Source of the DNA: Squalus acanthias
Lineage: Eukaryota
NCBI GenBank assembly: GCA_030390025.1
Contig: CM059427.1
Coordinates: 188,046,001 to 188,110,000, forward strand
DNA: 64,000 nt
Reading direction: 5' to 3'
Under the pieces are notes generated by a model. It searched no databases. It was not told the origin of the DNA and saw only the letters and a program-made list of their open reading frames with translations. How positions within the stretch are numbered: position 1 is the stretch's first letter; each line of letters opens with the position of its first letter. Positions 3,841-63,268 of the stretch are shown here, one piece after another. Both the position numbers and the translations under genes were made by a program.

Positions 3841-4013
3841 CTGCTACAGGTCTAACAAGACATCGTTTACTGCGGCAAGGATTACTTGCAGGTGCCAGAC
3901 TTTGGCTTTAAAAGGTCTCTGTGTACTTTTAAAAGGCCTTCCGAAGTCGGAGGTGCTTCAGCTTGACTCCATCCACTGTGGGACCTCCTTGGAAGACCCT
4001 CTGCCCGCTTGCA

Positions 4014-5339
4014 ATGAGCGCTTCCCCAAAGGAGACATCTACAAGCAGCATGGGAACCATTCATTTTCTTTCACCATGGACCTCAGATGAGGATGCGGAC
4101 CATCCACGGCAGCAGCAGAACCAGGCAGCTCAACAGCAACAGCAGCAGGAGTCCCAACCTCCTGCTCAGCCACCTGATGCTGCACAGAGCACAAGGCACC
4201 AGCTCATCGAGGCACCTCGCCACAGGAGATACCCCCGACAGAGCTACCTCAACATGAGTGAGCAGCAGTGCCAAAGGAGACTGAGACTTTCGCAAGAGGT
4301 TGTCCGAGAGATCTGCAGCCTGCTGCAGCAAGACCTGGTGCCCAGAGGAACGGGTGGACACCCCTTACCAGTGGCTGTCAAAGTCACCACCGCACTCAAC
4401 TTCTTTGCCTCAGGCTCCTTCCAGGGATCATCAGCAGACATCAGCGGCATCTCCCAGTCAGCCGCCCACAGTTGCATCACCCAGGTTACCGATGCCCTTT
4501 TTGCTAAGGCCCACAATGACATCCAGTTCACAAGGGATCAAGGAAGTATAACCGCCCGTTCGGTTGGATTCGCAAATATGGCAGGCATGCCAATGGTGCA
4601 GGGCGTCATAGACTGCACACATGTGGCTCTTAGGGCACCCCATCACAACCCAGCTATCTTTGTCAACCGAAAGGACTTCCACTCCCTCAACGTACAGCTG
4701 GTGTGTAACCACAAGAAGGAGTTCTTGCATGTTTGCGCCAAGTTCTGTGGAAGTTGCCATGACTCTTTCATCCTATGGCACTCTATTGTTCCTCCGCTTT
4801 TCAATCCATCAAACCAACTTAATGGATGGCTCCTTGGTGGCAAAGGCTATCCCCTGAAGAAGTGGCTAATGACGCCAATCAGGAGGCCAGCTAACGAGGC
4901 TCAAGAGCGCTACAACACCAGCCACACTTCGACCAGGTCCCTAATAGAGCAGACCATTGGGTTGTTGAAGATGCGCTTCCATTGCCTTGACCGAACAGGT
5001 GCAGCCCTGCAATATACACCATACAGGGTCTCCAGAATGGTCGTGGTCTGCTGTACACTGCACAACATCGCACAGCGTCATGGCTTGCAGATACCTGATG
5101 AGCAAGTGGCTCAGTTCCNNNNNNNNNNNNNNNNNNNNNNNNNNNNNNNNNNNNNNNNNNNNNNNNNNNNNNNNNNNNNNNNNNNNNNNNNNNNNNNNNN
5201 NNNNNNNNNNNNNNNNNNNNNNNNNNNNNNNNNNNNNNNNNNNNNNNNNNNNNNNTATCGACCAGCGGCAGTGGCAGCACACGAGCACATGGCTACCAGG
5301 AATGCAAGGGATGAACTTATCATGGCCAGATTTGCATAG
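4014..5339 (+). CDS. Harbinger transposase (HARBI1-like DDE nuclease), spans an assembly gap
   Basis: Motifs '[11 protein letters not shown]', 'GVIDCTH', '[14 protein letters not shown]', 'GSCHDSFI', 'LLGGKGYP', '[15 protein letters not shown]', 'CCTLHN'. N-run at 5119-5255. Confidence 0.9.
5119..5255. other. Assembly gap / masked run of N
   Basis: Run of N characters in the sequence. Confidence 1.
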
Positions 5340-15084: not shown

Positions 15085-15193
15085 TTATAATCTTTTATCT
15101 CTATCTTCATGGATTATATTTCTGTCTTACTGATGGCTGCATCACTTTTTTCTACTGCCATTATGTTATCTCTGATAAGTATAGCTACTCCAC
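15085..15193 (-). mobile_element. Old CR1 endonuclease fragment, left flank of the provirus
   Basis: Minus strand reads 'GVAILIRDNIMAVEK', directly continuing 'LNIAGYNIFRKYSKGKRGG' found at 26125-26250. Confidence 0.8.
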
Positions 15194-16981
15194 TGTAGGC
15201 TTCGCAAAATCCCCCAGAAACTCGAACAGAACCCTAAAGGAGGTGATTTTTGGATTTTTCATACAAATTTGGGATGATGGGACATGAGTGAAGTGATTTG
15301 GGGTAAAAACCTCAGTTTTGGACATTCTTAAAAATCAGGGAAGAAAAACCCTGAGGAAAATGACTTTTGGATATTACTGTTGGGAAAAACACCTTTCACT
15401 GACACAAGACAGGCTGCAGAGGGGTGTGGTGAGGCAGTGGACAGCTTTAGGATATTGGGACCCAGTCAAGCTGGCTGGGAATTGTTTACACTGCAATCCA
15501 ACCATGGAGGAAGAGACAAACCCAAAACCTCACATACACATCCAAATATGAATGATCCAAGAACCCTTTTGAAATTCCCAGGCCCAAACAGGATGCCAGA
15601 AGCCTGAAAACAATGAAACATCTAGTACACCCATTACTTCATTAAAAAAACAATCAGCCCAGTATCTACAGGGACAGATTAACAAGCCCGCCAAAAACCT
15701 AAGACAAAAGGGACAAGATTTGTCGCGTAGATAAAGGCCCTGCCTAAATGGGAGACATTGGAAGCCATCAGGACAATTTAACACCAAGTTAAAGTCATCA
15801 AAATTTAACAAGCCCGCCAAAACCTCAGACAATGGAATGAACAGGCATCAACTGAAACCTAAATCACTCCAACACGAAACCGATTTAGTGAAGGGGTTTT
15901 GGGCGCGAAAAAGACAAAGGGCCTGAACTGTATAATTGAGGGCCTAATCCCCCAAGAAAGTTAGTTGCAGCAGGTTCCAGCAAGACACTACAAGCCACAC
16001 GACACGAGCAAGAGGAGGAAAGAAGCAGCAAGGCTACGAGGCAGACCCGAGGCGAGATCGGAGGCAGGGACAGACAAGGCCAGGCAAGGGCTAGAACTGA
16101 GACCACTGGGAGCGGGTCGGCATCGCTCAACATACCGTCCAGCTCTAGTAGGTACTAGCCAAGGCCACTGGAAGCTGGGAGCGAGTCAGCATCGCTCAAT
16201 CCACGGTCCAGCTCCAGGAGGTACCGCCCCGACAGGCCTCCAACGCAACAAACCAACAACCAGAGCCACCAAGGGCTCCACGAGGTGAACCGACACTCGA
16301 AGGTCCCGCGGAAACCAAGGCCCCGCGCAACCACCAACTACCAGGCAACCATGACCAAGAACCAGACCAACACCAGGGAAAAACCGAAGACACGCAAGTT
16401 TACACTCTGCAAACTATTCCTGACTTACCCCTGGGTAAGATTTTCCCTTAAAAAGCTCTAAACCCTACTTCTAAGGAAGAAAATCGGGTACTCACCTGAT
16501 AGTATCTAAAACGCACCTTACCGCATCAGCGGACAGACCCAAACTGACCTGAAGTGCAGCTAAAGTCTTCCACCACGTCCAGGGTACGGCAGGCCCCAAC
16601 AACCAAAAACCTCAGTGAACCCCGAAATCGCAAAATACATCAACTGTCAAGAACTGTCATTGGTGAGCATTATCCCTGATCCTTTGAAATTGAAACCTAG
16701 CTAGACAGTGGGATTGGGAGGGATAAGGGTTTTTGTATATTGTTGTTCTCCCTCTCCTGTACCGTGTGTTCCCCAACCTGTGTTTAAGCATCTAAGTGTG
16801 TTTTAAGTTTGTTACCTTTTTCTTTTAATAAAGACAAAATTCTTTCATCAGAACCTGTTGTCTACTGCATTTTTGTTCACAACCCCTAAATAAGTCCAAA
16901 GTCGAGAACCAGGGGCGTGGGAGCGATTCGAACCGCTCACTGAGTCAGAGGTGAGGCTGACCCCACACGCCACCCCCTACA
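15194..16981 (+). repeat. 5' LTR, family A (1788 bp)
   Basis: Begins TGTAGG and ends CCTACA (perfect inverted ends). TATAAT near 15932, GGTGAGC donor-like motif at 16662, AATAAA 16827-16832. Confidence 0.92.
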
Positions 16982-16983
16982 AA

Positions 16984-18805
16984 ATGGCGACCGTGGCAGA
17001 ACCTTGGCAAAAGGGTTGTGAAGCAGTAAACGCTGGTTTTGAGGAGAGAACAAAAATGGAAGAGAGGATGTCATCCTATGTGTACAAAAAGGTTAATATA
17101 ACCAACAAATGGGTAATCAGGCTGTTGCATGCTGAACGTCCTATGGACGCTGCAGCTACATGGATTGAGAGCAAGGAATATAATAAGTCTGTGGAAAAGG
17201 CCATATGGTTGGTCTGCTCCCAGAAACAGATGCAGCTTATGGGGAAGCGCATTCAGATTCTCACAGAAGAACGAAGGGAAGAAAGCCAACTGTCCCGTGC
17301 CAGAGCCATAGCAGGGGACAGGTTGTGAGCAGAGCTAAACTCAAAAGATCAGGAACAGTTGCAGATAATAGAGCAACACCGTGCCAGTAAGGGATACCTC
17401 CAGTGTCAGGCCACCAAGGCCAAAAGTAGTGAACTGGCTTGCGGGAAGAGAACACCCACCTTGCCAAGCAATTAAGGGAATTTAAAGAAAAGTTAAAAGA
17501 CGTTCAGACAGCTTACAGAGTAGCCAGTACTAGGGGGTTTGAGGTAGGAGACCACAGCCCCTGTCAGAAGCAGATTGAGAGTCTGAACCTTGCTCTGTCT
17601 AAGGCAAAAGGCATGGTGTGCCTGATAAGCCCGGGTGCGGCCCAGGAAGGCCTGGAAGAGCAAGGGGAAACTGTTCGACCACCACCTGTGGCGCCAAGGA
17701 GAAGCTTGGTTAGGCAGAAGGAGGAGCAGACAATCTGTGAGGCTGACAGGGAGTGCACACCAGCACCTGTGGCGCCGAGTTTTGACTTGGTCTGGCAGCA
17801 GGGAGAGGGGGGCAAACCGATGCAGGAGAGGTCGGAGCCGGGGCCGATGTGCCCAGCCCGGCAGCAAAGGTTTGGCCCGCCCGCAGTGGTGGAGGTCAGG
17901 GACCCCTTTAAAATCAATTTGTGGCTCCCCACGGTACACAACAGCTTAGGGCTATGGTAAGCCACCTGAGTAAACTTACACAAAAGGGGGACCCCTCAGT
18001 ACACTTCATGGAAGTGGAACAGCGGGCAGGCATCAATGACTGTGATGATGCCGAGATGGCAAAAATGCTCCTGTTCTCACTAGATGGCAAACTATACCAG
18101 TCCCTCTCTGCCGAAAGCAAGAGAGCGCAGAATGGGTATGCTGCCTTCAGAGAGGAGGTTTTAGAGGCCATGGGGATAAATGATGGTAGTCCCTTCTCCC
18201 GGGTGGAGAGGACAGTGCAGCTCGCAGGGGAGACCCCACAGGCTTTCGCAGACAGGCTGTGGCTTGTGTACAGGGGTGCTTGTAATGGGGATCTCGACCG
18301 AGCTAACCTGAACAGGGACGAGCTGGCCCACTGGCTCCGTAGCCTAGTTGCAAACAGCTTGCCACGAATCAAAGCCAAGGCTGAGCTTTGGTTTGACCCA
18401 AGAGATCCCCGGGTCACCGAGGAGGCAGTGGTCAGACAACTGACCCTAGCCGACCGGAACGGTAGGGGAGCTGAAGAGCCCCCACCAAAAGGAAAGGTGT
18501 ATGAAATAAAGCCCAGTCAGGATAAGAAGGAGTGGCACCAGGAATGTGGTAAAACTTCCGACACAAAGCGTAACTGCTTCGGGTGCGGGAAGAGTGGGCA
18601 CTGGAGAAAGGACTGTAGAAATCCCTGGAAGGATATGCTAACAAAGAATTCCCCAGCTTTTGCCCCAAAAGTAGAGGCACCGACCTCTTCCCCCACACTG
18701 GACACAATAGTAGCGGCCATCAGAGTCCTGTTTGGTGGCCCAGAGAAGGTAGCTACAGCCACTGGTGCTGTAATCCCACCTGCCCCCCCTAACGCAGACC
18801 TATGA
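16984..18805 (+). pseudogene. gag: gag region (N-terminal coiled-coil segment, capsid-like segment, CCHC zinc knuckle), with stop and frameshifts
   Basis: ORFs 16984-17328, 17439-17960 ('LREENTHLAKQLREFKEKLKDVQTAY' heptads) and 17921-18805 with 'CFGCGKSGHWRKDC' (Cx2Cx4Hx4C). Confidence 0.85.
16985..17002 (+). promoter_or_regulatory. Primer-binding site (TGGCGACC..., probably tRNA-Arg type)
   Basis: TGGCGACCGTGGCAG begins 3 nt after the LTR end. TGG complements tRNA CCA. The tRNA identity is inference. Confidence 0.75.
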
Positions 18806-19902
18806 CTAGAACCAGCGCAGCCCGTCTACCTGTGTTCCCCGGACTACGATGGTAAGAAGGGGGTGGAGACGGTGCAGGGGAGATGTTTGGTGGACACCGG
18901 AGCTGCCAGCACGGTGGTCCATTCAGAAGACCTGACCAATTCACCCAGGTCTAACAAGGTCCCATTTAGCATAATGGGGTTCACAGGGAACGAGCAGGCT
19001 GGGGCAATGTCCAAACCTTTGGACATAGATTTAGGATCCCTCCATACCACGTGGGAGGGTAACCAAAAGGCCGACAAATTGGCCAAGCAGGGGGCCAGGG
19101 AAGGAGAGTTCTGGGATCCCTATAAAGCAGGTCCGGTAGCCGCAATCCGGGACAAGGGAGGCACACAGGGGGTAGCTTTGCCCCCGGACTTGAAGCAGGT
19201 CCAAGCCCAGGATCCCGTCCTTAAGGCCGGCCTGGTAAAAAGAGAGAATGGGGAGTCCATAGAAGGTCCGTTCAGGGCAGCGGACGAGATTTTAAAACAG
19301 ATTCACTGGCAAGCAGCCAGTAACCTGGGGAGCCAGCACCAGAAAAATCGCCTGCTGTTAGAACCCCAGAGAACCCACGAGTGGGAGATTGACCAGTGTA
19401 AACTGTTTAAACTTGAGAAAAGGGAACAGCCAGCAAAGGTGGACTACCCCAAAGTTAAAAATCCCCAGCCAGCAGCTGTGGCAGACGCACAAGCTGCAGC
19501 GGGAGGGACAGTGTGCTGTTTCACAGGAGAGAACCCTCCCCCGATTACATGGGACTCAAGCACACCCCCAGTGGCCAGAGCCCTAAGAAGGTCTCCCCAC
19601 ACACCACAGCCAAAGCTACTGTGGCCACAGGTGTATCTGTTTAGAGGGTCCCACCCAAAGAGGGCTGCAACCCGAAAAGGAGCGCCCAAGAGCAGGGAGC
19701 GTTCTAAAGTTGGGGATCCCCAGCCTACAGCCTCCAACAGTGAGGGACTCACAGGAGAGGTAGTACTGGGAGAAGAGAGAGAGAAGGGTCTCCCGCCTGC
19801 AGCCTCAGGCTGGGAGGAGCCCACAGATATGAACGAGGGCGCTGCAGCCACACCAAAGGGGGTAGTGTGCTGCAGCACAGGACGCAGCTGGGATGTTAAG
19901 AT
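18806..19902 (+). pseudogene. pol: pro-pol remnant: aspartic protease fused in frame to RNase H C-terminal helix and integrase-flanking fragments; RT absent
   Basis: 'CLVDTGAASTVV' (protease), then at about 19054 directly 'EGNQKADKLAKQGA' (retroviral RNase H end) and 'LKQVQAQDPVLK'. No YxDD, HHCC or DDE motifs seen. Confidence 0.8.
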
Positions 19903-20162
19903 AAAATTGAGAGGTCGCACAACACCAGGTTATAGTCCAACAGTTTTATTTGAAATCACAAGCTTTCGGAGCTATCGATTGCTCCTTCCTCAGGTGAAGT
20001 AAATTAGATACAGAATTCTGTATCTAATTTACTTCACCTGAGGAAGGAGCAATCGATAGCTCCGAAAGCTTGTGATTTCAAATAAAACTGTTGGACTATA
20101 ACCTGGTGTTGTGCGACCTCTCAATTTTGTCCACCCCAGTCCAACACCGGCATCTCCGCATC
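19903..20162 (+). mobile_element. Penelope-like 3' end inserted as a perfect palindrome
   Basis: 113-bp inverted arms centred on GAATTC (20013-20018) plus a 34-nt tail. Flanking duplication ATGTTAAGATAA (19893-19904, 20163-20174). Sequence is nearly identical to the end of the element at 60087. Confidence 0.9.
20035..20080 (+). ncRNA. Minimal hammerhead ribozyme motif of Penelope-like pLTR
   Basis: CTGAGGA-AGGAGC(aatcgata)GCTCC-GAAA-GCTT: conserved CUGANGA and GAAA boxes around helix II. Further copies at about 30029, 34494, 37260, 62674 (+) and 19990, 33930, 38600, 60205 (-). Confidence 0.8.
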
Positions 20163-20482: not shown

Positions 20483-22764
20483 ATGACAAGGGTTCTGCTC
20501 CTGCTCGCCCTGGTAGGGGTGAGCATCGGTGACCAAGGTGACGTAGAGGACTCCCACATCTATGGGTGCTCGGGAGAGAGAGCACCAGTCGTCACCGCAG
20601 GGGGTGGCGAGCGGGGAGTGGAGGAGCTCGCCATCTACTTCCACGAGGGAAGGTGGCCAGGGTGGCTGAGTTCCAACTCTACTAAATACTCCAACCAGCC
20701 CGGGTTCATGTACGGGGAGGCCTCCCTCCCATGCCCCAGAATACAGGTTGTTGCCACAAGGGTCAGTGTCACCGAGGGGAAGCGTGTGTGCCTTAGCTGT
20801 AAGGGACGAATTCCCCTGAATAGGTGGTGGTGGCTCAGAAAGCTGAGCAGGGACGCAGGGGACCATACAGCCCACTGGGAAAGATTAGGGAACGACACCT
20901 ACCGGACAATCACAGGGACCCAAGGGAGAGTGAGTGTTTGTTGGGATAAGTGGTGGGAGTCGGAACAGGGAGTCTATGTTTGTATGTGGGGATCAGAGGA
21001 AGCCTGCCCCACAGGGGTATCCATCATCTTCTCCAGCCAATGGCAAGATGCCGGGGAGGGGATAGGGTGGGATTCTAGCCTGCATGTGTGCGTGGTCCCA
21101 CACATTCCGATCCCAGTTAATGCCACTGAACTCGTGGCACACACCCGAAAGCCCCTACCCACGACCCAGGTACCAAAAACCCTGGAAGAAAAGTGTCCTA
21201 CCACAACCAAGGGACCAGGGAATGGGTTAGTCCTAGTACCAACTGAAAAGGTACTATACCAGGGGGTACACTATGCAGTAGCTTCAGTAATATTAAACCT
21301 TACCGAGGTATACTTACCTGAGTGGTGTCCTAAGGAGACGGAGCAGTTGTACCAGGCCTTGCTAAAGGAAATGTTTAGAAAATTTTACGAGTTTGATTTT
21401 GCCAATATAGACAAAGTAGAGCTATACAGAATACACCCTGAGAACCCTATGGGCACTGGGAGACAAAGAAGGGGAGCCTGGAATGATGTTTTCACTGCCT
21501 ATAGTACAGGATCCTCTGTGATAAATAGCCTGGATGGCATGGAATTACAGACACAGATAAATGGTTTAAAAACCCAGTTAAGAAAGATCCTGAAGGATGG
21601 GAACACAGTGGTAGGCTCAGAGCTACATGAGGACCAAGCTATGATGGTTCATTTAAAGGAAATTATTGCAGAATTGGAAAGGCATGCCAAAACAGTAAAT
21701 GCACTCATACAGGAGGATAGGAATGCATCGGATCAGGCTGCACAGAATGAGGTGTGTGTGCTGTACGGGGCATGGTTGCTGGACGAGGGCCATAGCAACC
21801 TGGAGGATTTAAAGCAAGGTTTAGTCCCCTCCTGGATCAGCAACAAGCACCTCGCAGCCCTCCACCCGTTTAGTAATTCGCTGAGCCAATGTCAATTTTG
21901 TCTAGCCTCTGAAGCCTACCCTGTCCCAATAGATTGTGGGCGTTCCAATCACACTATCATGGGGATAGTAGTGAGGATGCCGGTCATGAGTGGGACAGCC
22001 CGACCCGTACCGGTATACAGGGTGGAGAACATTGGGATCATTCAAGGGGGTGCACACATCCGTTTCACAGCGGTCCCACCTTATGTCATAAAGTGGGAAC
22101 ACGCTATGACAGGTACTGACCTCTCCGGGTGTTGGAGCCGGGGTTCACACATAATACTATGTCCCTAGCACTCAGGACTTCTAAACCACAGTGCGGGTTT
22201 AAAGCTGCTGGCGCACGACCTATAAACTGTACCATGGAGGTAATGGCACACGGCCATGTTTCCCCACAGGTAGCATATATAGGGGGTGGGACATATTGTG
22301 TCACCACAGGTGTGTCCCACTACCAGCATGGACACTTCTGGTGTCCGGTAAGTGACAGCAGTTTCTGCTTTAAACCCGAGGCAGAAGTTCAAGTGGCCCA
22401 GGAACGGATTGTCCCCATTCCTGAACCCTCCACTGTTCACCTCACTGTAACAGAAAACATCACCAACCTGCAAATGTATGTGACTTATTTTGGAGATAAA
22501 ATTCCCCCTCTACCCGAACATCTTACCATCCTACTTAAAGCTGTAGAGATTTCACAAAAACATTTCTACACCCTGGAACAGAAAACAGTTGAAATAGGGG
22601 CAGAGATTTTGGATATAGTAGTTCCACCCTGGTGGGATATTTTCGAGAATATAGAGGTGCCTTCCTGGATCAGGATGGCTTCCCATCTTCTGGTGGTCTG
22701 CCAGCTCGGGATAGTTCTCTACCTGCTGTGTATAAAGTGCAGTGGAAGGGATGGACAGCTCTGA
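20483..22764 (+). pseudogene. env: env: signal peptide + Ig-like domain + stalk + class I (F-like) fusion glycoprotein with TM; one stop/frameshift at about 22166
   Basis: 'MTRVLLLLALVGVSIG' leader behind a splice acceptor (AG 20468-20469); furin site RQRR 21461-21472; heptad 'MELQTQINGLKTQLRKIL'; Cys-rich region; TM 'HLLVVCQLGIVLYLLCI' in ORF 22129-22764. Confidence 0.85.
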
Positions 22765-23115: not shown

Positions 23116-26100
23116 TGTAAGCTTCGCAAAATCCCCCAGAAACTCGTATAGAACCCTAAAAGGGGTGATTTTTGGATTTGTCATACGAATTTGGGATGAT
23201 GGGACCTAAATGAAGTGATTTGAGGCAAAAACCTCAGTTTTGGACATTTTTAAGGATCAGGGAAGAAAACCCCTGAGGAAAATGACTTTTGGATATGACT
23301 ATTGGGAAAAACACCTTTCACAGACACAAGACAGGCTGTGGAAGGGTGTGGCGAGGCAGTGGACAGCTTTTGGTTATTGGGGCCCAGTCAAGCTGTCTGG
23401 AAAATGTTTGCACTGCAATCCAAGCAGGAGTAAGAGCCTCACCCAAAACCTCACAAACACATCCAAAATTGAATAATTCAAGACGCCTTTTGAAATTCCC
23501 AGGCCCAAACAGGATGCTAGAAGCCTGAAAACAATAAAACATCCAGTACACCCATCACCCCACCAATCACCTGTAATCAACCGAAGAGATCGACAGGACG
23601 CAAGCCATTTGACACTTAGTAAAGTCGTTACTGTTAACAAGGTCTTACAATGACCAGGATTTGATTTGGCTTTGACGAGGCCACTTCAATTTAGTATAAT
23701 TGAAGGCCCATCAAGCAGTTACAACAGTTTCAGTAAGAAGGCCCATCAAACAGTTACAGTTCAAGTTCAACAGAAGGCAGTTCTGCAGGCTGGAGTTACA
23801 GAGTTCAGGACAAGCAGGCAGAAGGCAGTTTCCACAGTTCTGCAAGAAGGCAGTTTGTAGATTTTCGCAATTATCACGATTTTAATAATAAGGAGAGAAG
23901 CAAGTTTAATTGAACATTTTATTGAACGAAAGGCTGCTACTTTAAAAAAAAAGGTATAGCAGCCTTGTAAAATGGCCGCCGAGCATCGTGACAGGCTTTC
24001 CAGAACATGGTGAGCACACAGCCACTGCAGTAAAAAAAACCGCGAAGACCAGTCGTAATGGCTCAGACAAGAAGGCGCTGAAAATACATTTATAATGAGA
24101 TCATGCACAGTACAGATTGGGAAGGCAGGATGCAACACATTTGTGTTTTGGACAGAACAATAAACTAAGTGCTTGACTCATTTTAAATGCACGGTGAGGA
24201 GTCGTTGCACCGGACGGTCGGGGCCCATCCAGACACATCATTATACAAATTCCACCCAGCTCAACAATGAGAAAGACATTGACGGGTGATTGGGCCAGTT
24301 TTGAGTGATCCCGAAACCAGTTGAGGAGACAATTATACAAATTCCACCCAGCTCAACAATGAGTAAGACATTAACGGGTAGTTGGGCCAGTTTCGGGTGA
24401 TCCCGAAACCAGTTGAAGAGACAATTACCCCATACCGAGAACTTTGGGCGCCAAAATTAAACAAAAGACAGCATCTTGATTTGAGCGGGAGATAAGGCCC
24501 GTTCCAACAGTATAACTATAGAAGAAGAATGTGCATCAGGGGTTCGTTGTGCGTTCGTTCATTGGTCTCGTTCGTTTGGTGCGGTTCGTTCGTTGGTTCC
24601 GTTCGTTCGGTTGGTTCGGTCGGTTGGTTGGTTGGTCGTTGTTGACCGTTTTGGGCAGAGGCTCACATTCGGCCAGGAGCGGAACCTCAGGACGAGCCAC
24701 CTCGACACGGCAGGCAGCAGGGTACACCATCCCGATCATCGGTAATCGGTGTCCGGATCCATCAGGGCAACGCAGCGGTGTGTTCCCGAACGACCAGCCG
24801 CTGTCAGTCAAGAAGGCAGGAACTTCGGCCAAACGAGGCCCGAGCGGCGAGAAGAATTCCACGTAGGAGCCGGCACGGTCAGTCAAACCCCGACCGCGCC
24901 CAAAGATAAACGACGAAGTAGGTTCAAACCCACTCTTTGAATCCTAACGAATATTTCATGACATCAGGAAAGACAGGCTTTTTCTTCTGGTTATTTGAGC
25001 GAATAGCCTGGGCCATCCGCGACGAACGTTCATCAGGGCTAACCCGAGTGGGTCCATCGTGGCAGCGAGAGTAAACAAGTCGTGCTCAGAAGCTCCCACC
25101 GCCACGTGGCAGCCAGGGGCTGCAACGAAAAGCTGCGAGCCTCATTTTAAATTCCGAAATAACCCGAGTGGTGAGCATGTTTCCCGATCCTACAAGTCCA
25201 GACTTAGTTTAGGTATTATAGGGGAGAGTGGTTTTTAAGAGTAATTTGTAATGTGTTATCCCCTTTACGATGTGCCGTGTGTTCCCCATTTGTATAGAAC
25301 AAGATTTATAGACGTGTGTATACTTGTAATTTCTTGGATCTGCGCATATGACATGTATTTCATTATTTTGGACACCGTACAATAAAGGCATTTCATTTCG
25401 TATTATTCAACCAGGTCTATTTGAGTCCTTCTCTGCATTACTGCTCCTTTGCATCTAAGTCCAGGTGTCAGAACCGTAAGGGCGAGTGGGTCGAACCACT
25501 CACGGGTGATTATTTCAAGAGGTCTGGCCGGAGACCAGAGCAAGCAATAGCAAAGAATCACAGGCCACGAAAACCCCTTACAAGTTCCACAGCTCGGAAG
25601 AAGACAGTTTAAACAGAGGCAGAGTTACAGCAAGAAGTTCAACAAAGAAGGCCAACAACTTCACAAGCAGACCGACACGCAAGAAGAAACCAGAGCGACT
25701 GCCTCAGTGACTATCGGACACCTCGCGGCAACAAGGGCCTCACGAAACCTTTTACTCAAATGACTCTAAACCCTAACTCTAAACCGTCAAGGATTCGTTT
25801 GGTGAGCATTATCCCTGGTTCTCCAGAGTCCAACCTAGCTAGTGAAGTGGGATTGGGAGGGGTGAAGTATTCTTCTAATGTTATTTCCCTCGCTTATACC
25901 AATGTGTTCCCCAACCTGTGTTTAAGCATTAAGAGTGTTTTAAGTTTGTTACCCTTTTCTTTTAATAAAAGTCAAAATTCTTTCATCAAAACCTGTTGTC
26001 TACTGCATCTTTGTTCACAACCGCTAAGTAAGTCCAAGGTCTAGAACCAGGGTCGTGGGAGCGATTTGAACCGCTCACTGAGTCAGAGGTGAGGCTGACC

Positions 26101-26124
26101 CCCCCCCACACACCACCCCCTACT
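23116..26124 (+). repeat. 3' LTR, family A variant, interrupted by a family B solo LTR
   Basis: TGTAAGCTTCGCAAAATCCCCC start matches the 5' LTR to about 23555. The end (25800-26124) matches 16660-16981. Terminal CA reads CT. Confidence 0.88.
23856..25582 (+). mobile_element. Solo LTR, family B, nested in the proviral 3' LTR
   Basis: TGTAG...TTACA, TSD AGTT (23852-23855, 25583-25586), internal (GTTC/GGTT)n repeat at 24540-24650. 5' and 3' parts are homologous to 2162-3840. Confidence 0.9.
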
Positions 26125-26250
26125 CCACCTCCCCTTTTTCCCTTGCTATATTTTCTAAATATGTTATACCCTGCAATGTTTAATTCCTCGTCCTGATTTT
26201 TGTGTAGCCATTTCTCAAAATCCCTACTATATCGGGTTTCTTGCAACATA
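26125..26250 (-). mobile_element. Old CR1 endonuclease fragment, right flank of the provirus
   Basis: 'KWLHKNQDEELNIAGYNIFRKYSKGKRGG' on the minus strand. Confidence 0.8.
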
Positions 26251-42510: not shown

Positions 42511-44892
42511 CTTTTCAGAGTCCAACAGTGGAACAACTTAATAAAATGAAAAATGTTAGCAGATTTCTCATTGCTCTTCAATTCCTTTTCCCGATCTATC
42601 TATTAATCTCTCTATCTGTCGATACATCTACTCTTGTATGTAGCAAACGTCCATCAGAGCATTTTCTGTTTTCTATGATATGTTATATTTGATCAATCAA
42701 CAGCTGAACAGATTGCATGTGGTATAGAATGGGTCAAAAGTAAAAACAATATTAAAATGTTAATAAGCGTTAAAATTCAGAATTATTGAGAATCATTTTT
42801 TGTGTTCGAGGCTGTGCAACATATAAAAGTTACATTTGGGTAAAACATCATTTGAAAAGGTTTGAAGGTTTGTCGCTGATCCTCACTTCGGGTCACATCT
42901 TGGTTTAGTGTCCAAAGATGTTTAAACATCACTGTGAATACAGTGTGCACAGAGCCATTGTGGTTTTGGTAATTGTGATGTGAGCTGGTATTTAATCAAG
43001 ACTTACAGACACATGGGATTTACTGCTTTAGATCACTTCCCTTGTGAAAATGTAGATAAAATAATGGTTACAATGAGGATTAATTGACTGTTACCCTTGA
43101 AATGAAGGAAGATAATGATTCAAAGGTGGAAATGTAGTTCAGGGAATGGTAACGATGAACTATTGACTGAATGATGTGACCACTGTCACCAGAGGCCACC
43201 TGGAAGTATCCAAATGCATTAACGTTAAATGTCACCGTCACAGCCACAGTTGTCACCTTTCACAGATAAGGCAAAGCACCTGGTGGAAAGAGGCTGCAAG
43301 TCAGGTTCCAAGAGCTGGTTTATCTCTGTCACGGTGTCTCATCAGACAAGGGGGGAGGATGCAGGAACTGCCTGATCGCTGCCCACCTCAGGAAACCCCG
43401 TCACAGGACAAACGGGGTGGAGACCCGACGTAACCGTATCCTGCACCAATTTCACTCCCCAAGTTCCACCTTGATAATTCCCCCTGCAGACCAGGAGTCG
43501 GGAGGAGATTTGGAGCCTTTATTTTCAGTAACAAGAAATTTAGCCATGACCTCTCTTTTTATTTTGATTACTTTTTGTAATAATAATGTATATTACATAG
43601 AATTACATAGAATTTTACAGCACAGAAACATCTCTCTCATGTGCCTATCTATGTTCAGAAAGCTCTGCTAATAGATACACAGAATATCTACTGGAAGTGT
43701 TCTGTTTTTCCCTATAACCGTGCCTGCAGTGAAGGTGACATGATACAGTGCTTTCTCCTCATGTATTAGTGCTTCATTGTAACCTTCTCTGGACTGAACT
43801 CCTCAATGAACGAGCTTTGCCAGCTTCTTGGGATTGTAATGGGAGAGGATTTTGCTCTCCCTTCTTGCCCAATTTTGGATAGATTGTGGTCGGCAGGGGC
43901 AGAAAGTGGGGATGGGGATCCGGCGGGCTGCTCCCTGCAGATTGTCATCACTTCACTGAATATATGGACCCAAATATGGAGAGATTTATTCAAATTGCGT
44001 GGAGTGGCCAAGTGTTATCAGATGTTACATTCACCGTCATTACCGCCATAACAATGCTGGAACACAAGGGACAGCAGCATGTTCCCGGCATCTAGTGTTG
44101 TGTTGGCTTGCGGGAGTGGATTTCAATTTCAAATATCTATCTGAAGCAAAGCAATTGATCATGATCAAAGCAATTTGATCCCTCCCTGTCCCAGGTGGGT
44201 CCCTCAGATCAAAGCACGAGTCCTGCTGGGAGCCCACAATAATTATGGAAATTATGCTGATCTCAGGAAATTCCCCAGGGATCACGGTTTGGGAAGACAG
44301 GCGGGCACGGAGTCTGTCACACTGACCTACAGGCAGATTATGGCCAAATGGAAAATCCTGCCTCCCTTTGTTATCGGTAATCCTGTGGGTTGCCTGGTCA
44401 CTGGTGGTCCAGGAGAACCAACAACGTACTGGGCATTGCACAAGAGGAGGGGAGCTCACTTGTAGAGATCGCTGACCTGATTTATGAGCCTGAAGTGTTA
44501 TGACTGCACCAGTACTGTATTCAGTTTTAGGAGAATACTGATTATTGTGATGGTATTTCAGATTTCTTAACAATGTCGGAGTAACGATTCCCCTTCCACA
44601 CTCCCAGTAAATGCTGGAAATACGGATTGTGAAATTGGACACTGGAGGCCCACAAGGTCAGAGTGCAGTGGCAGAAATTCACCCTCTAATGTCCTAAAGT
44701 ATCACTGGATTAGGCCAGATTATTCCAGACAGTCAGCTCTTCACCGGGGTGTGTATGTGTCATTGCTGAATCCATTGTATATAAACAATATGACTGTAAA
44801 TAAATGAAGTCCAATATTAATCATTACAAACATGGGATTAAGGAGTTACAGTTTAAATATTTAAATACTTACATTGTTCCTCTTTCTAACAG

Positions 44893-45234
44893 GAAACACA
44901 AATCATATTTATTTTTTGGATAAGCGAGATGACATTCCATTAAAAGGACCGGACAATCCTGGGAATGGCCCTGTTGTCTGGGAATGGAAACCACACTCAG
45001 GGCAAGAAATCCAGCGGCTGGTTACTTTTCACAAAGGGGGTTCGGGCTTGTGGGACGCACAATGGAACGATCACTTTAGCAACAGCGACTTGTACTGGAT
45101 AGTAGAATGGAGTCCTTGGACCATTAATCTGAGAATTAGAAAACCCACATTTAAATTTGCGGGATCGTTCATCTTGACTCAAACACAGCCGAGTAATAAA
45201 ATCCTGAAACAGTATGAAATATTTGGGATCAAAG
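44893..45234 (+). CDS. IgSF gene exon, domain 1 (V-like, no cysteines)
   Basis: Acceptor tctttctaacAG, donor G|GTGAGT, phase 1-1, open frame. 'IPLKGP...VVWEW...INLRIRKPTFKFAGSFILT' follows V-set spacing. Confidence 0.75.
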
Positions 45235-46129
45235 GTGAGTGGGACAAAGTCTAGAAAAGGTTCAATAAAATGATTCTCAGTGAATAATTTCATGTGTAAC
45301 GATGAGAGATTGCCAGGATCACGTGAGATTTATATCACCCAGTGCAGAGAGCATCTCTCATTAAAACAACCAGGGGAAAGATTTTGTTCATTGTTTCTCC
45401 TGAAATGGTCAACATGAGTAAAAACATTTTGACAATTTCACCAGAAATAGCAAACCGAGTAATCTACCCCACAGAGAGTATTATGGTCTGTACACTGGCA
45501 CACTCTCTGTCAGATGTACTGAATTATGTTACCAAACCAATAGATCACTTGAAGTAATAAGCCTGAGCGCGATGGGACAAGAATAAGATTGGCCAGAATC
45601 ACTGCTCCTGATTGCTGTCCAGTGAACCTGTTAGATGTGTCACTTGGTTGAGGTCCCACAGGATGTCAAGTGTCCCTGGAACTTGTACTATGCCAAGGAG
45701 TTAACGCCTTCAGGAAAGCAAGAAGAACATGGCAGAGAAAAAGAGATACATTGGGGGGAATTTTAACCCCAAAAAATGTTTGGCTTGGGGTCGGGTGGGA
45801 GGTTCCAGAGTTAAAAATCTGAATCCTGGCCCCAACTCGCCTCCAACCCGCCCACTTCTAGTTTTAACGGAGGTGGGACGGGGGTGGGGGGGCAGCTAAC
45901 CTGCTCGCAGGTGGTGAGTTCACACTTTAAATATTCTAATGGGGTTGGGTGCCTCATAGTGATCCACAATTTTAAATTTAACTGTAGGCTCGGGGAACCC
46001 GCCAGCTAAAGGGTGATGAGGACAGCTGGACCCAGGGTTTCTGCCTCGCCACCTGCCCACTATCGGTCCCCTCCCCCCGACCCTTTTGATCTCCCCCAAA
46101 CTACCCCTGAGGCCTCCAATACCCCCACA

Positions 46130-46325: not shown

Positions 46326-48119
46326 CCCCACCATTCCCTCACTCCCTGCTCTCTGTGGCCTGGTGCCCCAGGCCTTTACATTCGAGCCTTTCCTTCTGGC
46401 TGGCTGCGGGAGGGAAACAGAGATTTAAAATGTTGATCAGGCCCTGTCGCTAAATTCAGTCTCGCCACTCCCTATCTGCCTCCAAAGCCTTTCCTCCATC
46501 TACAAGGCACAAGTAAGGACTGTGATGGAATACTCTCCACTTGCCTGGATGAGTGCAGCTCCAACAACACTCAAGAAGCTCGACACCATCCAGGACAAAG
46601 CAGCCCGTTTGATTGTCACCCCATCCACCACCTTAAAAGTTCACTCCCTGCTCCACCAGCGCACTGTGGCTGCAGTGTGTACCATCTACAAGATGCACTG
46701 CAGCAACTCGCCAAGCCTTCTTCGGCAGCACCTCCCAAACCTGCGAACTCTACCACCTAGAAGGACAAGGGCAGCAGGCGCATGCGAGCACCACCACCTC
46801 CAAGTTCCCCTCCAAGTCACACACCATCCTGACTGAGAAGTATATCTCCGATCCTTCATCATTGCTGGGTCAATCTCCTAGAACTCACTACCTAACAGCA
46901 CTGTGGGAGTACCTACACCACACGGACTGCAGGGGTTCAAGAAGGCAGCTCACCACCACCTTCTCAAGGGCAATTAGGGATGGGCAATAAATGTTGGCCT
47001 TGCCAGTGACGCCCAGATCCCATAAAATTCCGGCCATTGTATCTACTCAAAAATATTTAAAAAGCTTTAGTATAAATATATCAAAATCTTTAGTTTCTGC
47101 CAACTAAGGATGCTGCTCAACAGCTGCACTTTCTGGTTGATTGATGTGTGTAACATCTAAATGAGGCTGAGGTCACTGTCATATGTACTTGATACAAAAT
47201 ATAATCCAATCCTGAAATGTCGAAGTGGCCAAAATATCATCGTGACTGTACTGGGCCTGGACAATTGCTCCTGAGGTGTTAGCCCAAACTGCACCAGAAT
47301 GTGTTGACCATAATAGAAAGTCAACTCATTTACATTTATTAGTTGCACTCATGGTACATAGTGCATGGTACACGGGGAATGTCACATGGGTCGGGCACCA
47401 GAGTGTTGGGCGCCAGCAGCTAATTGATGCCCACCATTGTTTTGGCCTGACGTTGGAATGAAAGTCCCTGTTGAAGATTTGATTCTTACTTGTCATGTTG
47501 TAGGTGGGACTGAAAGTCAGGGTGGGCATTTTTAGAACAAGCCTCTCCTGAAGTGCCATTCCTCATGGACGCTCAATGATTGGAGCCCTGCTCAGGAGCA
47601 TTTTGGGAGCCCACTAATTTAAATAACGTAATGACTTTTGACGTGGATTTTGTGCACAGGCTCCCAGTGCGTGTGTTGGGTGGTCTTACTGAAGTGTGCG
47701 AGGCACATTGAGAACAGAGTGGGACTGGAGCCTTCTCCATGTCTGATAATATGGGCGCTACATTTCCATCACACCCTCCTCTGGTGAGATTCCATCACCT
47801 GTCCATTGTGGTGTCGGCTTCCACAAATGTCATCCAAACCATGTAACCTTAACCTGACCCCGGATACTCCAGCAGGGTCAGGGGTAAAGGTCATCGGCCG
47901 CACTCTGGCTCACTTACGCTGGCAGAGCTGGACCGAGAATTTTCAGGCTCACTGTGTTATTCTACTGATAAAATGCACTTGTGTGTAATCTGGCCTGACT
48001 CTTTAATGCAGCAAGGTACAAGTGCTGATGATGGGCACATCCTACGGTCAGTTAGAACCTAATCATTGGATTGTACATGTCACTACTTACACTAAATCTT
48101 ATTGATATGTTTTTCACAG

Positions 48120-48389
48120 TTGAGTCAAGTCCACAGAGTGCTGTGGTGGGCAGTGACGTTACACTCAGCTGTACCATCTCCAAACTCTCAGATACAGTCA
48201 GTCTTCAATGGAAACAGAGAGACTCATCTCAGCAGAACAGGAGCAACACTGATCAGATCCGACTAAATAACACAGTCTATCTGATAGTCAAACATGTTGC
48301 AGTAGAGGATAAGGAGTTGTACGCGTGTGAAGTGCAGGAAGATGGATCCATTATTCTCACAGGAAAAGCAGATTTTTCTGTGGCCCAGG
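48120..48389 (+). CDS. IgSF gene exon, domain 2 (C2-like)
   Basis: Acceptor ttttcacAG, donor G|GTAAGT, phase 1-1; 'GSDVTLSC...LQW...YLIVKHVAVEDKELYACEV'. Confidence 0.9.
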
Positions 48390-49331
48390 GTAAGTGCAGT
48401 TACCTCACAGTAGATATTAAAGAGTTACTAATATAAAACTGTTACATATAAAGTGGAGTCATACATGTCAACCATCAGCACTTCATGCTTACAGTCAGCA
48501 TGTGGGGGCCTGGTGCACATATCAGCATTGAACAAAAAACTGGCCTCTCGCCCCTCAATGCCACTTCTAACCGAGTTCTGCTGCTATTTCAAGTGATTCC
48601 AGCTGCTGCATACTCTAGGCTTCAAATAAGCATTCAGCTGGAGCAGGACTGAGGGAAGCGGGAAGGGCAGGGAATCAATGGCCATGAACGGAGAGGGAAG
48701 GATGGAAATGATGGCAATGTAGAGGAGAGATGGTGGGCAGAGGGAAATGACAGAGGCTGGGAGTGGGGCTTTGGGGGAGGAAGAGGGGAAAAGCTGAGAG
48801 TGGAACTTTGGAGTAGAAGATAAGAATTTGCATTTGTGTGAAGTGTAGAAAAAAGACTCTGTTATTAAAATAGCATCAAAACTATTGATGTGGATCAGGG
48901 TAAGGCCAGAACTACCTTACAGTAGATATTAAATAGTTACTGAAATAACACTGTTACACACAAAGTACAGGGAGCACAGAGACAGCATATGCTTTTACTA
49001 CAGACTGGGACCTTATTTTCTCTTTGAAACATTGGTGTAAATATAACATTGCAATACAGTGGGCAAATATCAACAACCAGGTCTTGATGGATCTGACAAT
49101 AAATAGCAAAAGAGTTGAAGGTGGACAACAACATTCTCACACAGCTCATCAGTTACCAAAACACAGAGACAATTCTTTTCTAAATATGGTTCACTTTATT
49201 CACTGCAAGGGCACAGCATTAAAGTCCATCCCTGAATATCTATTCAGTGCTCTTCCAATACACACACATATGGCCGGAGTTTTCCAGGGTGGTAGTGGGG
49301 GCGATTGGTGGCGGGTCGGGTGGGAAAGTTA

Positions 49332-54310: not shown

Positions 54311-56938
54311 AAAAAGCCTTTGGTGAGGCTTGACCAGAAATGAATTGTTAAACTGTTTTATCTCACAGCGAGTGATAAATAATGAACACGGTACACTTTG
54401 CCACACCAGTGGGTCAACGATTGATTTAAACAATTGGGCGAGAAAGTTGTCGGTGTCACCGCAACTGGAGTTAAGGGCCGCTGAAAATGGCCGCAGAGCT
54501 AATGAGAATAAATTTGTCTGGGGGGCTGGAGATTGGTGGCGCAGCACTAACCTTCCGTGCAGCGCCCCCTGGTGGCGTTAGTGGAGACCTCCGAGGTGAA
54601 GTTCCCGTCCTGACGTGGTGTTCGAGCTTCGCACAGCCTCTGGGAGCGAGGAATTGTGGGCCATTAAAAGGGCTGTGAATTAAAGGGGCCACGTACTCGG
54701 AACTGATACAAATTAAAATGCAGTGAAAAAATGCAGTTTTCAGCCCTTACTGCCTGTCAAAAAAAAAATATAACATTAAAAAGAAGTCCCAAATGTGATT
54801 GTTCAGTTCTTAAAGCTGAATTCCCTTCAGAACCTCAAAAAATAGGAAATTTGCTTCAGCACTAACACAAATGGCTCAGCAAGCCAGGGAAGGGGCACCC
54901 AGCATCTCGCACGCAGCACTCCAGCTTTGTGCAGGGGGTCAACACTGCAAGACAGCTCCTCTACCCACAGGGGTCAGGAGACCCTCCAGAAAGTAGGATG
55001 AGGAACTACATCACCGAGGCAACACTGCCAGCAGTGTCGCCCCCACCACCTGGCTCCAGTGCCGAAGGAAGCTTCATGACCTCAGACCACTGGTCAAGGT
55101 CAGTAAATGCATCTTCAAAAGCCCTCTCCTACCAACTGCAGCAGCAGCCTCACACATTGCTCAATGCACGACTCCCCTCTCAATCACTCACCTACCAACA
55201 ATCTGCACCAATCACGAGGCACATCTCCGATTCCTAGCCTCACCTCACCCCTTGGAGGAGACGGTGTAGGCCATTCTTGGCAAAGGCATGGCTGAGCCCT
55301 TGGCCAGCGGTGCGGCTGAAAGGATACAAGATGCTGGTATCCTCACTTGTTAGCCTCCTTCTGGCATGCACCTCATGCTTTCTTGCCCTCCCATTACCAC
55401 AACTCCACACTTGTCCCATCCTCATTTCACAAACCCAAGAAATGCAGCCTGCCCAGCCAGTGGTTGGCCAAGAAGAGGGAGGGCGGAGGAGGAGGAGGAG
55501 GAGGTGATGATGATGATGATTTGACACTCCCAGCCACCAGCCCCTTAAGGCCAACCAGCAAGGCCTTTTGCAGTGTCCCCCACTGAAAGTCAGAAGCTTT
55601 CCACCAGCCATGCTGCAGCCACTGGGTGGCACTGCGTCACATCAGTAGGATAGGCAAAGGCATGCATAAGGGTAATGAGTTGATTTCTTGATGTCAAGAT
55701 GATGTTGTGATGCTCAATAACAGATGGAAGGAAAGTTGTGGAAACGGGAATTGGGATTGTGGTCACTGGTACCGCAGGCGGATGATTCTATCCCGGATAT
55801 CCCAGCCAGAACGGGACTGTCTGGGTTGTATCCTTCCTTCGGATGCTGTAAATCTGAAATGCAGGAAATACTCAGCTGGTCAGGCAGCATCTCGACCTGA
55901 GACGTGAACTCTGTTTCTCTCTCCACGGATGTTGCCTGACCTGCTGTGTATTTGCAGCATTTCCTGACTTTTCAGAGTCCTTCCTTTACCATCCGAGGGC
56001 TTGCAAGCATCCAGCAGCACTCCCTACACACTTAACAAGCTTTTAACATCGAATGCAGCAAGCCACTACTTCAATAAAATAAAAAAACACAGTCCAAAAG
56101 CTTAAATCCAAATTTACCTGAATGATGTATGTGCCACTTTAAGAGGTGCTGACATTGCCACTGTCAGCCTGCTTGCAAGCCAGGTTTCACTGGCGTGCTT
56201 AGGACCCCGCACTGAATTCAGCGCTAGGGTCGAAGTTCTGAGTGATGATGTTCAGTCGACATTGCATTTTTTTCTCCAGGGCGCTGCCAGTCACCGACAA
56301 CGCAAAGCAAACGTCGAAAATGGAGGACGCTGCAGGACCCGCCACCAGCTGGTGAAAGAGCGGTGGCCGCCGCCCTTTCGCCATTTTTTGCCAGTAACGG
56401 GTGGCGTAAAGCCCCCGAATTTTTCACCCATTAACTCCTAACTACCCTCCTACATGATAAACCTCTGAGCCTGGACCAGGCTTGCCCTTGCAACTTTCTG
56501 TATCAAACCAGACTGACGATGCACCCTTTGATGGACCTGCCTGTTTGCTTCTGTCTGTCTCTTTGTTTTATCTCCTTCTGTTAACAACCTGAGGGGACCA
56601 GATGTGCCCAACACAATGGGTATGAGGCGTTTATTGACAATCGATTGCTGAGACAGTTTAACAAATTGATTATCTACACTCCATGGGGAAACAACATCAC
56701 ATTGACGGGGGCCATGTTTGGAGCAGATGGACTTTGTAGCACAACCCGACGTTTAAACAATAGGCAGCCTGGGCCGGCAGCCAGTGTATCCGGGTCCCAG
56801 CCGATTTCCCTGTCCCAATGCTGCACTCCCAGCTGGCTTATGCCAGGAGGGCGCTGAATGGCCCTGTGGGATTTCAGAACATCTGTATCTCAGCAGCTAT
56901 ATAAATATAACACCTTGTTTCCTGTCTCTCTATTTCAG

Positions 56939-57277
56939 ATTTACGCAATAAGAGTTACACACTTTATCGGTCAGGCACAGATCACAGTGAACTCTCCCTG
57001 ATTTGTGAAGCTAAATCTGAATTCAGTAAAACTAAATGGACTTGGAGGTCACGTCATTTTCAGAATCAAGAGAAAGAAATAGCTTCTACTTTCAGATCTA
57101 AGCCTATCGAAGTAAACAGGACCTATTTTGGGAGTCGACTTGTGCCCACAGTGGGAAATCTTAATGGCAGGAACTTCAGTGTGAGGATTGTCCCCGTACT
57201 GTTTGAAGATGCTGGAGTTTACACTTGTTCTCTGGGGTTATTGAATTATGTGACCATTAAACTAATCACAGTTAAAG
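56939..57277 (+). CDS. IgSF gene exon, domain 3 (V-set)
   Basis: Acceptor tatttcAG, donor G|GTAGG, phase 1-1; 'ELSLICE...WTW...NFSVRIVPVLFEDAGVYTC'. Confidence 0.92.
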
Positions 57278-57319
57278 GTAGGAGACAGAATGCTGCAGGT
57301 GTTTTCAATGATAAAGTTG

Positions 57320-58400
57320 GGTAGAGTTTCCGCTTTGGGCACAATCGGCGATTCCGGCACAAATTGCGCCCAAAACTGCGCCCGTTTTGAAAAGTGTTTC
57401 CCCCCCACCCCCCGAGGTTCCACTCAAACTCATTTGCATATCACCAAACGCGAAATCTGCCCTGAACCAACGCAATTGGACAGTGATTTAAAACCTAATT
57501 TCTTTTTGCTAATATTGCTTTAAAAATATTCTAGGCTACATTTAAGAATGGTAACTTGGAGCAGTTTGCTTAATACAGCTGAAAGTGGGTTTGCCACAAA
57601 AAATAAGCATTTTAAATCACAGTATCGATCCGCCACCTGTGAGTAACTGATTTTAACTGACTGAAAATGACATAAAAAAATATACAGAACTATTTTCCAG
57701 TTAGATTGGGGCACAGTAGTCAGTTCCTTAGTAAATTGAAAAAAAATAATTTCAAATCCTTTCAAAACGTACGTATTCGTGTCCTTGCGACCAAAAGATC
57801 CAGCTTCATTTTTGGAGCCTCCTCGTCGGCCTGCAAACGGGCGCAATTAGTGGAAACTCCCGATGGTGATTGGTTCACCCTGTGGGCGGGGCCAATTTTG
57901 TGCGCAGGGCCAGTTTTATAGGCGGGGTCAGTTTTGTGGGCGGGGGCCAGTTGTGTGGGCGTGGCCAGTTTTGTGGGCGGGGGCCAGTTTTGTGGGCAGG
58001 GCCAGTTTTGTGGGCGTGGCCAGTTTTGTGGGCGGGGACCAGTTTTGTGGGCAGGGCCAGTTTTGTGGGCGTGGCCAGTTTTGCGGGCGGGGGCCAGTTT
58101 TGTGGGCAGGCCAGTTTTGTAGGTGGGCCCAGTTTTGTGGGCATGGCCAGTTTTGTAGGCAGGGCCAGCTTTTTGGGCGGGGACAGTTTTGTGGGCGGGG
58201 CCAGTTTTATAGGCGGGGCCAGTTTTATAGGCGGGGCCTGCTTCTAGCGAGACGTCTTTAAAACTAGCGCAAAAGATCGCGGAAAATCAAGTTGCATTGA
58301 ATGCAATTTGCGCTTAAAATTCTGCTACTGTTTGCGTTGGTTACGCCGATATCGGGCGAATTGTACCGAAAAAAACAACACAATGAGGTGCAAACTCCAG
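57320..58400 (+). mobile_element. Non-autonomous repeat family copy containing an expanded minisatellite
   Basis: Homologous to 41794-42510. Confidence 0.75.
57881..58238 (+). repeat. 21-bp minisatellite (GGCCAGTTTTGTGGGCGG-like), about 17 copies
   Basis: Directly visible tandem array. Confidence 0.95.
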
Positions 58401-62761: not shown

Positions 62762-63268
62762 TTCTATGAGATAGCCAGTTACTTATCCAATCGGCCAAAT
62801 TTCCCTCTATCCCACAACTCCTTACTTTCTTCATGAGCCGACCATGGGGAACCTTATCAAACGCCTTACTAAAATCCATGTATACGACATCAACTGCTCT
62901 ACCTTCATCTACACACTTAGTTACCTCCTCAAAGAATTCAATCAAATTTGTTAGGCAAGACTTACCCTTCACGAATCCGTGTTGACTATCCCTGATTAAG
63001 TTGCCCCTTTCCAAATGGTCATAAATCCTATCCCTCAGGACCTTTTCCATTATCTTACCAACCACCGAAGTAAGACTAACCGGCCTATAATTACCAGGGT
63101 CATTCCTATTTCCTTTCTTGAAGAGAGGAACAACATTCGCCACTCTCCAGTCCTCTGGCACCATTCCCGTGGACAGTGAGGACCCAAAGATCAAAGCCAG
63201 ACCCATTGTCAGGCAGATATAGATGGAATACATCATTCGAGGTACAATTATGGGGAAGGAGAGAGATG

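Follow-up and report, generated by a model that had tools for sequence, protein, structure and literature searches.

The stretch analyzed here (the window) comprises 64,000 nucleotides from Squalus acanthias (GCA_030390025.1, contig CM059427.1, positions 188,046,001 to 188,110,000, forward strand) and contains one copy of a highly abundant endogenous retrovirus (ERV) whose env gene encodes a putative immunoglobulin (Ig)-like domain near its N-terminus. An initial annotation, made from the letters alone, had placed a V-like Ig domain at 20738..21100, between the signal peptide and a fusion module, and had proposed that it was captured and novel as an Env architecture.

The Env frame and its Ig-like domain

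The env frame is uninterrupted from 20411 to the stop codon at 22166-22168, with the likely start at the ATG at 20483, and all motifs quoted in the initial annotation lie inside it. Residue numbers follow P0001; Met-based numbers are lower by 24. The following parts were distinguished:

20483..20530, +, predicted Env signal peptide (hydrophobic peak, residues 25-41)
20561..20731 (residues 51-107), +, conserved N-terminal head flank with Cys53, Trp82/85 and sequon N89
20732..21031 (residues 108-207), +, predicted Ig-fold domain with canonical Cys130/Cys191, Trp139-141 and further conserved Cys108, Cys127, Cys177 and Cys199
21032..21121 (residues 208-237), +, conserved C-terminal head flank with Trp211, Trp220, Cys227 and sequon N237; outside the fold model
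21122..21193, +, Pro/Thr-rich linker (39% P+T over residues 238-268, about 21122-21214)
21194..22168, +, N-terminal two thirds of the predicted F-type fusogen: C...GP-x-x-G start, furin site, fusion peptide, heptad region
22120..22764, +, remainder of env in another frame, with a transmembrane segment near 22675-22740

The furin site occupies 21461-21472 (residues 351-354) and is followed by the heptad and Cys-rich region. The Ig-like segment was found where it had been annotated, ending near 21031 instead of 21100 and lying within a larger conserved extension of 190 residues (20561-21121). The Pro/Thr-rich stalk was recovered as described; between families it is less constrained than the fusion core.

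The segment carries the motif set of the Ig superfamily (IgSF). Specifically, the B-strand Cys130 is encoded at 20798, the C-strand Trp run (139-141) at 20825-20833 and the F-strand motif E-x-G-x-Y-x-C (residues 185-191; D/E at its first position in the superfamily) at 20963-20983, with Cys191 at 20981. The two cysteines are 61 residues apart, in agreement with the Ig spacing of about 60 given before. Among 24,736 Pfam families, Ig_3 was the only one listed for the segment (E 0.0028), and its 18.6 bits, like the 19.1 bits of the best relative, remained below the curated cut-off of 30; V-set gave no match. A profile built from env sequences only retrieved 19 matches from the PDB at E<10; 18 are chains of the Ig superfamily, and none reached significance (best E 0.13). 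When scored with a profile made from 26 host Ig domains, the region outscored 200 of 200 shuffles, over the first strands only, and the hhalign probability for Ig was below 10%. At the level of sequence, the Ig likeness thus appears to exceed chance only moderately.

Fold modeling and a subsequent fold search yielded the two-sheet topology of an Ig beta-sandwich, which is therefore the predicted fold of the domain. Model confidence was low, and the Z score was at a level that the fold-search tool calls common. The top matches, with BTLA, CD8a and CD79b among the closest, tied at 9-21% identity. The earlier 'V-like' label fits the predicted sandwich, and the V type is one of two equally placed candidates: V-set and I-set structures tied, and the predicted local distance difference test (pLDDT) of the C-D region was below 50. 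Fold alignments began at model residue 10-11, and the sandwich may open with a strand contributed by the N-terminal flank, itself of low pLDDT.

Conservation of the head and relatives of the fusion core

When the 3.7-Gb host genome was searched with the domain, 5,749 candidates emerged; the 150 that were scored showed 89-100% identity, with a stop inside the match in 20. The two env families that abound in this genome, whose Envs are about 70% identical, both retain the head, as do a sawshark and a skate, the sources of the closest protein relatives. Constraint was assessed on a selected sample of 32 copies, 16 from each family, all with long open frames. The nine cysteines from residue 53 to residue 262 were each present in at least 31 of the 32 copies (Cys130 and Cys191 in 31 each), and the three Trp residues 139-141 in all. 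In the 16 family-B copies, Asp invariably opens the F-strand motif.

The ratio of nonsynonymous to synonymous substitution (dN/dS) for three family-B pairs was 0.067, 0.029 and 0.21 in the Ig region, and 0.057, 0.094 and 0.071 in the fusion core. In family A, where counts were small, values of 0.27 (p 0.04) and 0.37 (p 0.18) were obtained. Comparison of the window with family B showed saturation at synonymous sites (proportion of differences pS 0.77-0.86), with a nonsynonymous proportion pN of 0.21-0.22. As judged from these substitution patterns, the head is shown to evolve under purifying selection, which acted on replicating virus lineages and not on the window's copy. The annotated arrangement of an Ig-like domain N-terminal to a class I fusogen therefore recurs, under constraint, in related copies and in other species.

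For the fusion core an F-type fold is predicted. Residues 236-700 of a natural full frame fell into the Baculo_F and Fusion_gly clusters of the Atlas (0.91-0.93), and relatives gave weak Pfam matches to Baculo_F (E 0.0011) and Fusion_gly (E 0.035); profile searches of the PDB with the core reached no solved fusion protein. The layout is that of the F type (class Ib), with signal peptide, furin site, heptad regions, Cys-rich domain and C-terminal transmembrane segment. Hallmarks of gamma-type Envs, namely a TLV_coat match and the adjacent Cys pair of the CX6CC motif, were absent from a full-length natural Env frame.

A profile search of 1.84 billion proteins returned 55 matches at E<=0.001, one of them spurious. 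Among the 34 of the 55 whose records were examined, those with a name come from sharks, one skate, four frog genera (Pelodytes, Mantella, Bombina, Xenopus) and coelacanth; none is from a teleost or named as the snakehead retrovirus (SnRV). In nine distant matches the N-terminus is intact. Five of these show Ig-like motifs, two an unrelated Cys-rich module, and two (P0043 and coelacanth P0053) the same core with no module. The Ig-like assignment is statistical for P0035 and P0017, borderline for P0023 (9/200), and made by eye only for P0047 and P0056. P0035 has a CD2/CEACAM-like V domain by motif (V-set E 0.045), and P0017, from bamboo shark, is named 'Ig-like domain-containing protein' in UniRef. 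Distant env lineages retain the Ig motif spacing, and their heads diverge far more than their cores. In a quick, provisional core tree the V-like P0035 grouped with P0043, which has no head (support 94), and the Cys-rich type lay near the window's family; this mixture of head types fits repeated gain, swap or loss of the head.

The host genome itself holds at least four more, older F-like env lineages (L119-L134), with cores 22-28% identical to that of the window's Env and mostly a diverged Ig-like head. L122, the single match of its kind in the genome search, scored E 0.0019 against Ig_3, and L122, L132 and P0035 each outscored 200 of 200 shuffles against the Ig profile. The clusters of P0047 (Mantella, 16 members) and P0056 (Bombina, 3 members) consist of near-identical, mostly full-length F-like Envs, which suggests recent spread in frogs. 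P0007, P0008, P0015 and P0038 combine Env pieces with gene models of the zinc-finger, Niban, cadherin and F-box types; these are either annotation artefacts or exonised proviral sequence.

The provirus and its surroundings

The long terminal repeat (LTR) element that carries the env gene spans 15194 to about 26123. Outside env it comprises:

15189..15193, +, left copy of the target-site duplication (identical bases at 26124-26128, after the 3' LTR end); 5 bp, or 6 bp with that end placed one base earlier
15194..16981, +, 5' LTR (TG...CA); 15194-15637 is 89% identical to 23116-23558, and 16642-16980 is 85% identical to 25782-26123
16985..17002, +, primer-binding site, located from sequence; overlaps the gag ATG (16984)
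16984..18805, +, gag, split over three frames, with a CCHC knuckle; terminal TGA followed by CTAG, in frame with the protease
18806..19888, +, pol remnant (protease start, end of the RNase H region, integrase C-terminus), located by tblastn, for which a sister copy's natural pol frames served as queries
19900..20162, no strand, palindromic repeat insertion foreign to the virus (arms 19900-20015/20016-20131), absent there in sister copies
23116..26123, +, 3' LTR after a purine tract; about 2.2 kb of its interior (23559-25781) unmatched

The window's own copy is dead: pol is deleted, including reverse transcriptase (RT) and the integrase core, gag is broken, and env is broken too, with its remainder and transmembrane segment in another frame. 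The TGA-CTAG at the end of gag presumably represents a read-through-type context; TGA-CT(A/G)G was counted 23 times in 40 sampled loci. The first eight bases of the primer-binding site are identical in sister copies, and we take it to be of the tRNA-Arg type, the primer also used by SnRV.

In sister copies, pol has the order protease, RT, tether, RNase H, integrase, and its best PDB matches are the RTs of murine leukemia virus (MLV), then foamy virus, then Ty3. The RT_RNaseH(_2) and RNase_H matches in a sister copy, i.e., tether plus RNase H, are shared with canonical retroviruses and are not specific to lokiretroviruses. The F-like Env had first suggested a lokiretrovirus; this assignment was set aside after comparison of RT and head. 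The RT motif is LPQG, as in canonical retroviruses, and lacks the lokiretrovirus signature motifs, the Loki RTs shown having PFG (PMC7947760). Counted by hand and without a tree, RT identity was about 65/111 (~59%) with SnRV (row in the PMC7947760 supplement) and about 44/111 with the first Loki RT shown, the only one counted, other references being compared by eye. SnRV-like ERVs are also known from elephant shark (CmiERV lineage I; PMC4422223). The element is therefore likely an SnRV-like ERV, as far as these RT comparisons indicate.

The two LTRs are just 85-89% alike and differ in their interiors, and the env region is 93-96% identical to its nearest relatives among the sister copies sampled. 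The LTRs have probably undergone conversion or recombination, and dates derived from them would therefore mislead. On the same contig, L002 lies about 478 kb downstream and carries a 99% identical env copy with the same 585-codon open frame, which probably arose from segmental duplication and not from a new insertion. An RT motif was found upstream in only 19 of 40 sampled env-bearing loci (L021-L040, L059-L078), a sample that favours long env frames. Several pol-less copies of both families have an unrelated frame in common after the gag stop; non-autonomous, env-keeping subfamilies have therefore spread.

Elsewhere in the window, three host exon-like frames lie at 44865-45254, 48056-48436 and 56911-57324 (+). 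Two of them match Pfam Ig families, and a PDB search with one gave weak JAML and IgNAR matches only; our impression is that they resemble parts of CD4/LAG3-type genes. A 530-codon RT-like frame, presumably Penelope-like, is located at 60551-62143 (-) between perfect 670-bp inverted repeats (60124-60793 / 62094-62763). The palindrome within the provirus has sequence in common with 60086-60199. The 468-codon frame at 3933-5339 (+) we take to resemble a Harbinger-type transposase.

Role of the head and comparison with known systems

We consider it fairly likely (probability roughly 0.6) that the segment is a predicted Ig-fold domain within a conserved head on an SnRV-like ERV Env, and that it serves as a receptor-binding module, which an F-type fusogen would not have on its own. 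Furin cleavage would leave the head on the surface subunit, where it would bind a cell-surface protein and thereby tether or trigger the fusion core, comparable to the receptor-binding domain (RBD) of foamy virus Env or the IgV-like RBD of MLV. The head would be an exchangeable module, since relatives with the same core differ at this place: some bear an Ig-like domain that has diverged, others a V-like domain of a different kind or an unrelated module rich in Cys, and some bear nothing. A receptor-binding role fits best with an N-terminal domain that is conserved, dispensable and lineage-variable and is mounted on a Pro/Thr linker. Of the two roles initially suggested, receptor binding would suit the head better than an immune decoy.

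Host capture is plausible. Nevertheless, 'captured' could not be sustained as annotated: no donor was recognisable among 29 host Ig domains, the best reaching 22/77 identities, which 1 of 200 shuffles equalled. Genome searches with the domain were swamped by viral copies, and its intronless state is uninformative on capture because the gene is retroviral.

An Ig-fold head could instead act as a structural or regulatory cap that chaperones or clamps the prefusion trimer, receptor contact being made by the F core or another part of the head. Within family B the domain is conserved to the same degree as the fusion core, it has numerous invariant Trp and Cys residues, and its flanks are constrained too. 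However, P0043, coelacanth P0053 and nearly all published lokiretrovirus Envs have no N-terminal module, so the core folds without a head, and the divergence of heads between lineages greatly exceeds that of cores; we regard a cap as improbable. Less probable still is an immune-modulating mimic that engages an inhibitory or adhesion receptor of host immune cells and is no entry RBD. Immune IgSF domains are among the closest folds, P0035 resembles CD2/CEACAM, and capture of host IgSF genes by ERVs is known (nectin3; PMC4299795). On the other hand, the tied folds single out no immune ligand, the donor search was negative, and a fixed position at the tip of a fusion protein, on a Pro-rich hinge, matches entry RBDs. 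Least likely of all is a fortuitous resemblance to Ig in a beta domain that is rich in Trp and Cys and has a different fold, the model having followed the commonest beta-sandwich: the sub-threshold profile scores and low model confidence would allow it, but four methods indicated the same family, distant env lineages, some scoring alone against Ig profiles, share the motif spacing, and the UniRef name of the bamboo-shark relative is independent.

Beyond receptor binding by the head, a broader reading, tentative and somewhat short of an even chance, is that of an undescribed SnRV-like clade in sharks, rays, frogs and coelacanth, whose F-type fusogen has no sequence relation to the retroviral Envs described so far and whose heads have repeatedly been gained, exchanged and lost, with host IgSF genes as the source at least twice. 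If true, the entry module of Ig RBD plus proline hinge was invented independently on a second fusion scaffold, and the genomes of fish and amphibians still hold a whole set of intermediate forms. Natural pairs with and without a head (the headless coelacanth Env, the differing sister heads) would make the origin of retroviral RBDs testable. F proteins of the paramyxovirus type normally leave attachment to a second protein. That the scaffold can also bear a receptor-binding module of its own is demonstrated by foamy virus Env and coronavirus spike, and an Ig-fold head would be a third solution, convergent with that of gammaretroviruses on a fusogen unrelated to theirs. The results further suggest that F-type Envs are not confined to foamy viruses and lokiretroviruses and also occur in SnRV-like retroviruses, a point of relevance to the nature of the ancestral retroviral Env.

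Class Ib fusion scaffolds bear receptor-binding modules N-terminally or internally (PMC11468914). As in foamy virus Env, a scaffold of the paramyxo/pneumovirus F type appears here with an added module; the foamy RBD is a novel fold inserted upstream of the furin site, whereas the module here is Ig-like and N-terminal, the position found in coronavirus spike (PMC11468914). The element resembles lokiretroviruses in its F-like Env, its pol tether plus RNase H and the GP-x-x-G that opens the fusion core. Unlike it, 22 of 23 published lokiretrovirus Envs are headless, with GP-x-x-G directly after the signal peptide (counted by eye over the first few hundred residues of each, one being a fragment; PMC7947760). 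In the available parts of that paper, no lokiretroviruses are reported from three chondrichthyan genomes and immunoglobulins are not mentioned. For the SnRV clade, the descriptions at hand report neither an Ig domain nor an F-type fold in Env. CrocERV31, an ERV outside classes I and II, similarly has an IgSF sequence where env would lie, captured from nectin3 and under purifying selection; there, a three-domain host cDNA of ~76% identity replaces env, whereas the present Env joins a single, highly diverged domain to an intact fusogen (PMC4299795).

Type-C gammaretroviruses (MLV, feline leukemia virus (FeLV), Env-Pb1) combine an IgV-like RBD with a proline-rich region, and Ig heads pass from one Env to another, with host SIRP as the source in one case (bioRxiv 10.1101/2024.03.17.585361). 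The Env in the window shares with them an Ig-like domain after the signal peptide, a Pro-rich linker and a class I fusogen, with heads gained, lost and exchanged among lineages; the fusogen is F-type here and gamma-type there. The canonical B-F Cys pair, missing from RBD-C, is kept here, and no sequence link between the two was noticed, no comparison having been aimed at one. Env-Dbi ('RBD-C SIRP-like') likewise has a typical N-terminal Ig domain with a B-F disulfide and an extra Cys pair (bioRxiv 10.1101/2024.03.17.585361). Its domain aligns clearly to host SIRP, on an alpharetrovirus-like Env of mammals, whereas the domain here has no recognisable donor and the hosts are cartilaginous fish.

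No report of an Ig-like head on an F-type or SnRV-like Env came up in searches of open-access full texts, a scope that leaves aside subscription papers, Repbase and bioRxiv supplements, including those of Hotzel, which may list fish Envs. The same pairing was not found in the accessible parts of PMC9040795, bioRxiv 10.1101/2023.10.26.564294, PMC11089739, PMC12440569, PMC13709493, PMC12193657, PMC8672886 and PMC12583693. The novelty initially claimed for the layout does not hold, given the MLV/FeLV and SIRP-derived heads: an Ig-like head, a proline linker and a class I fusogen were already known in combination, and what looks new is the Ig head on an F-type fusogen.
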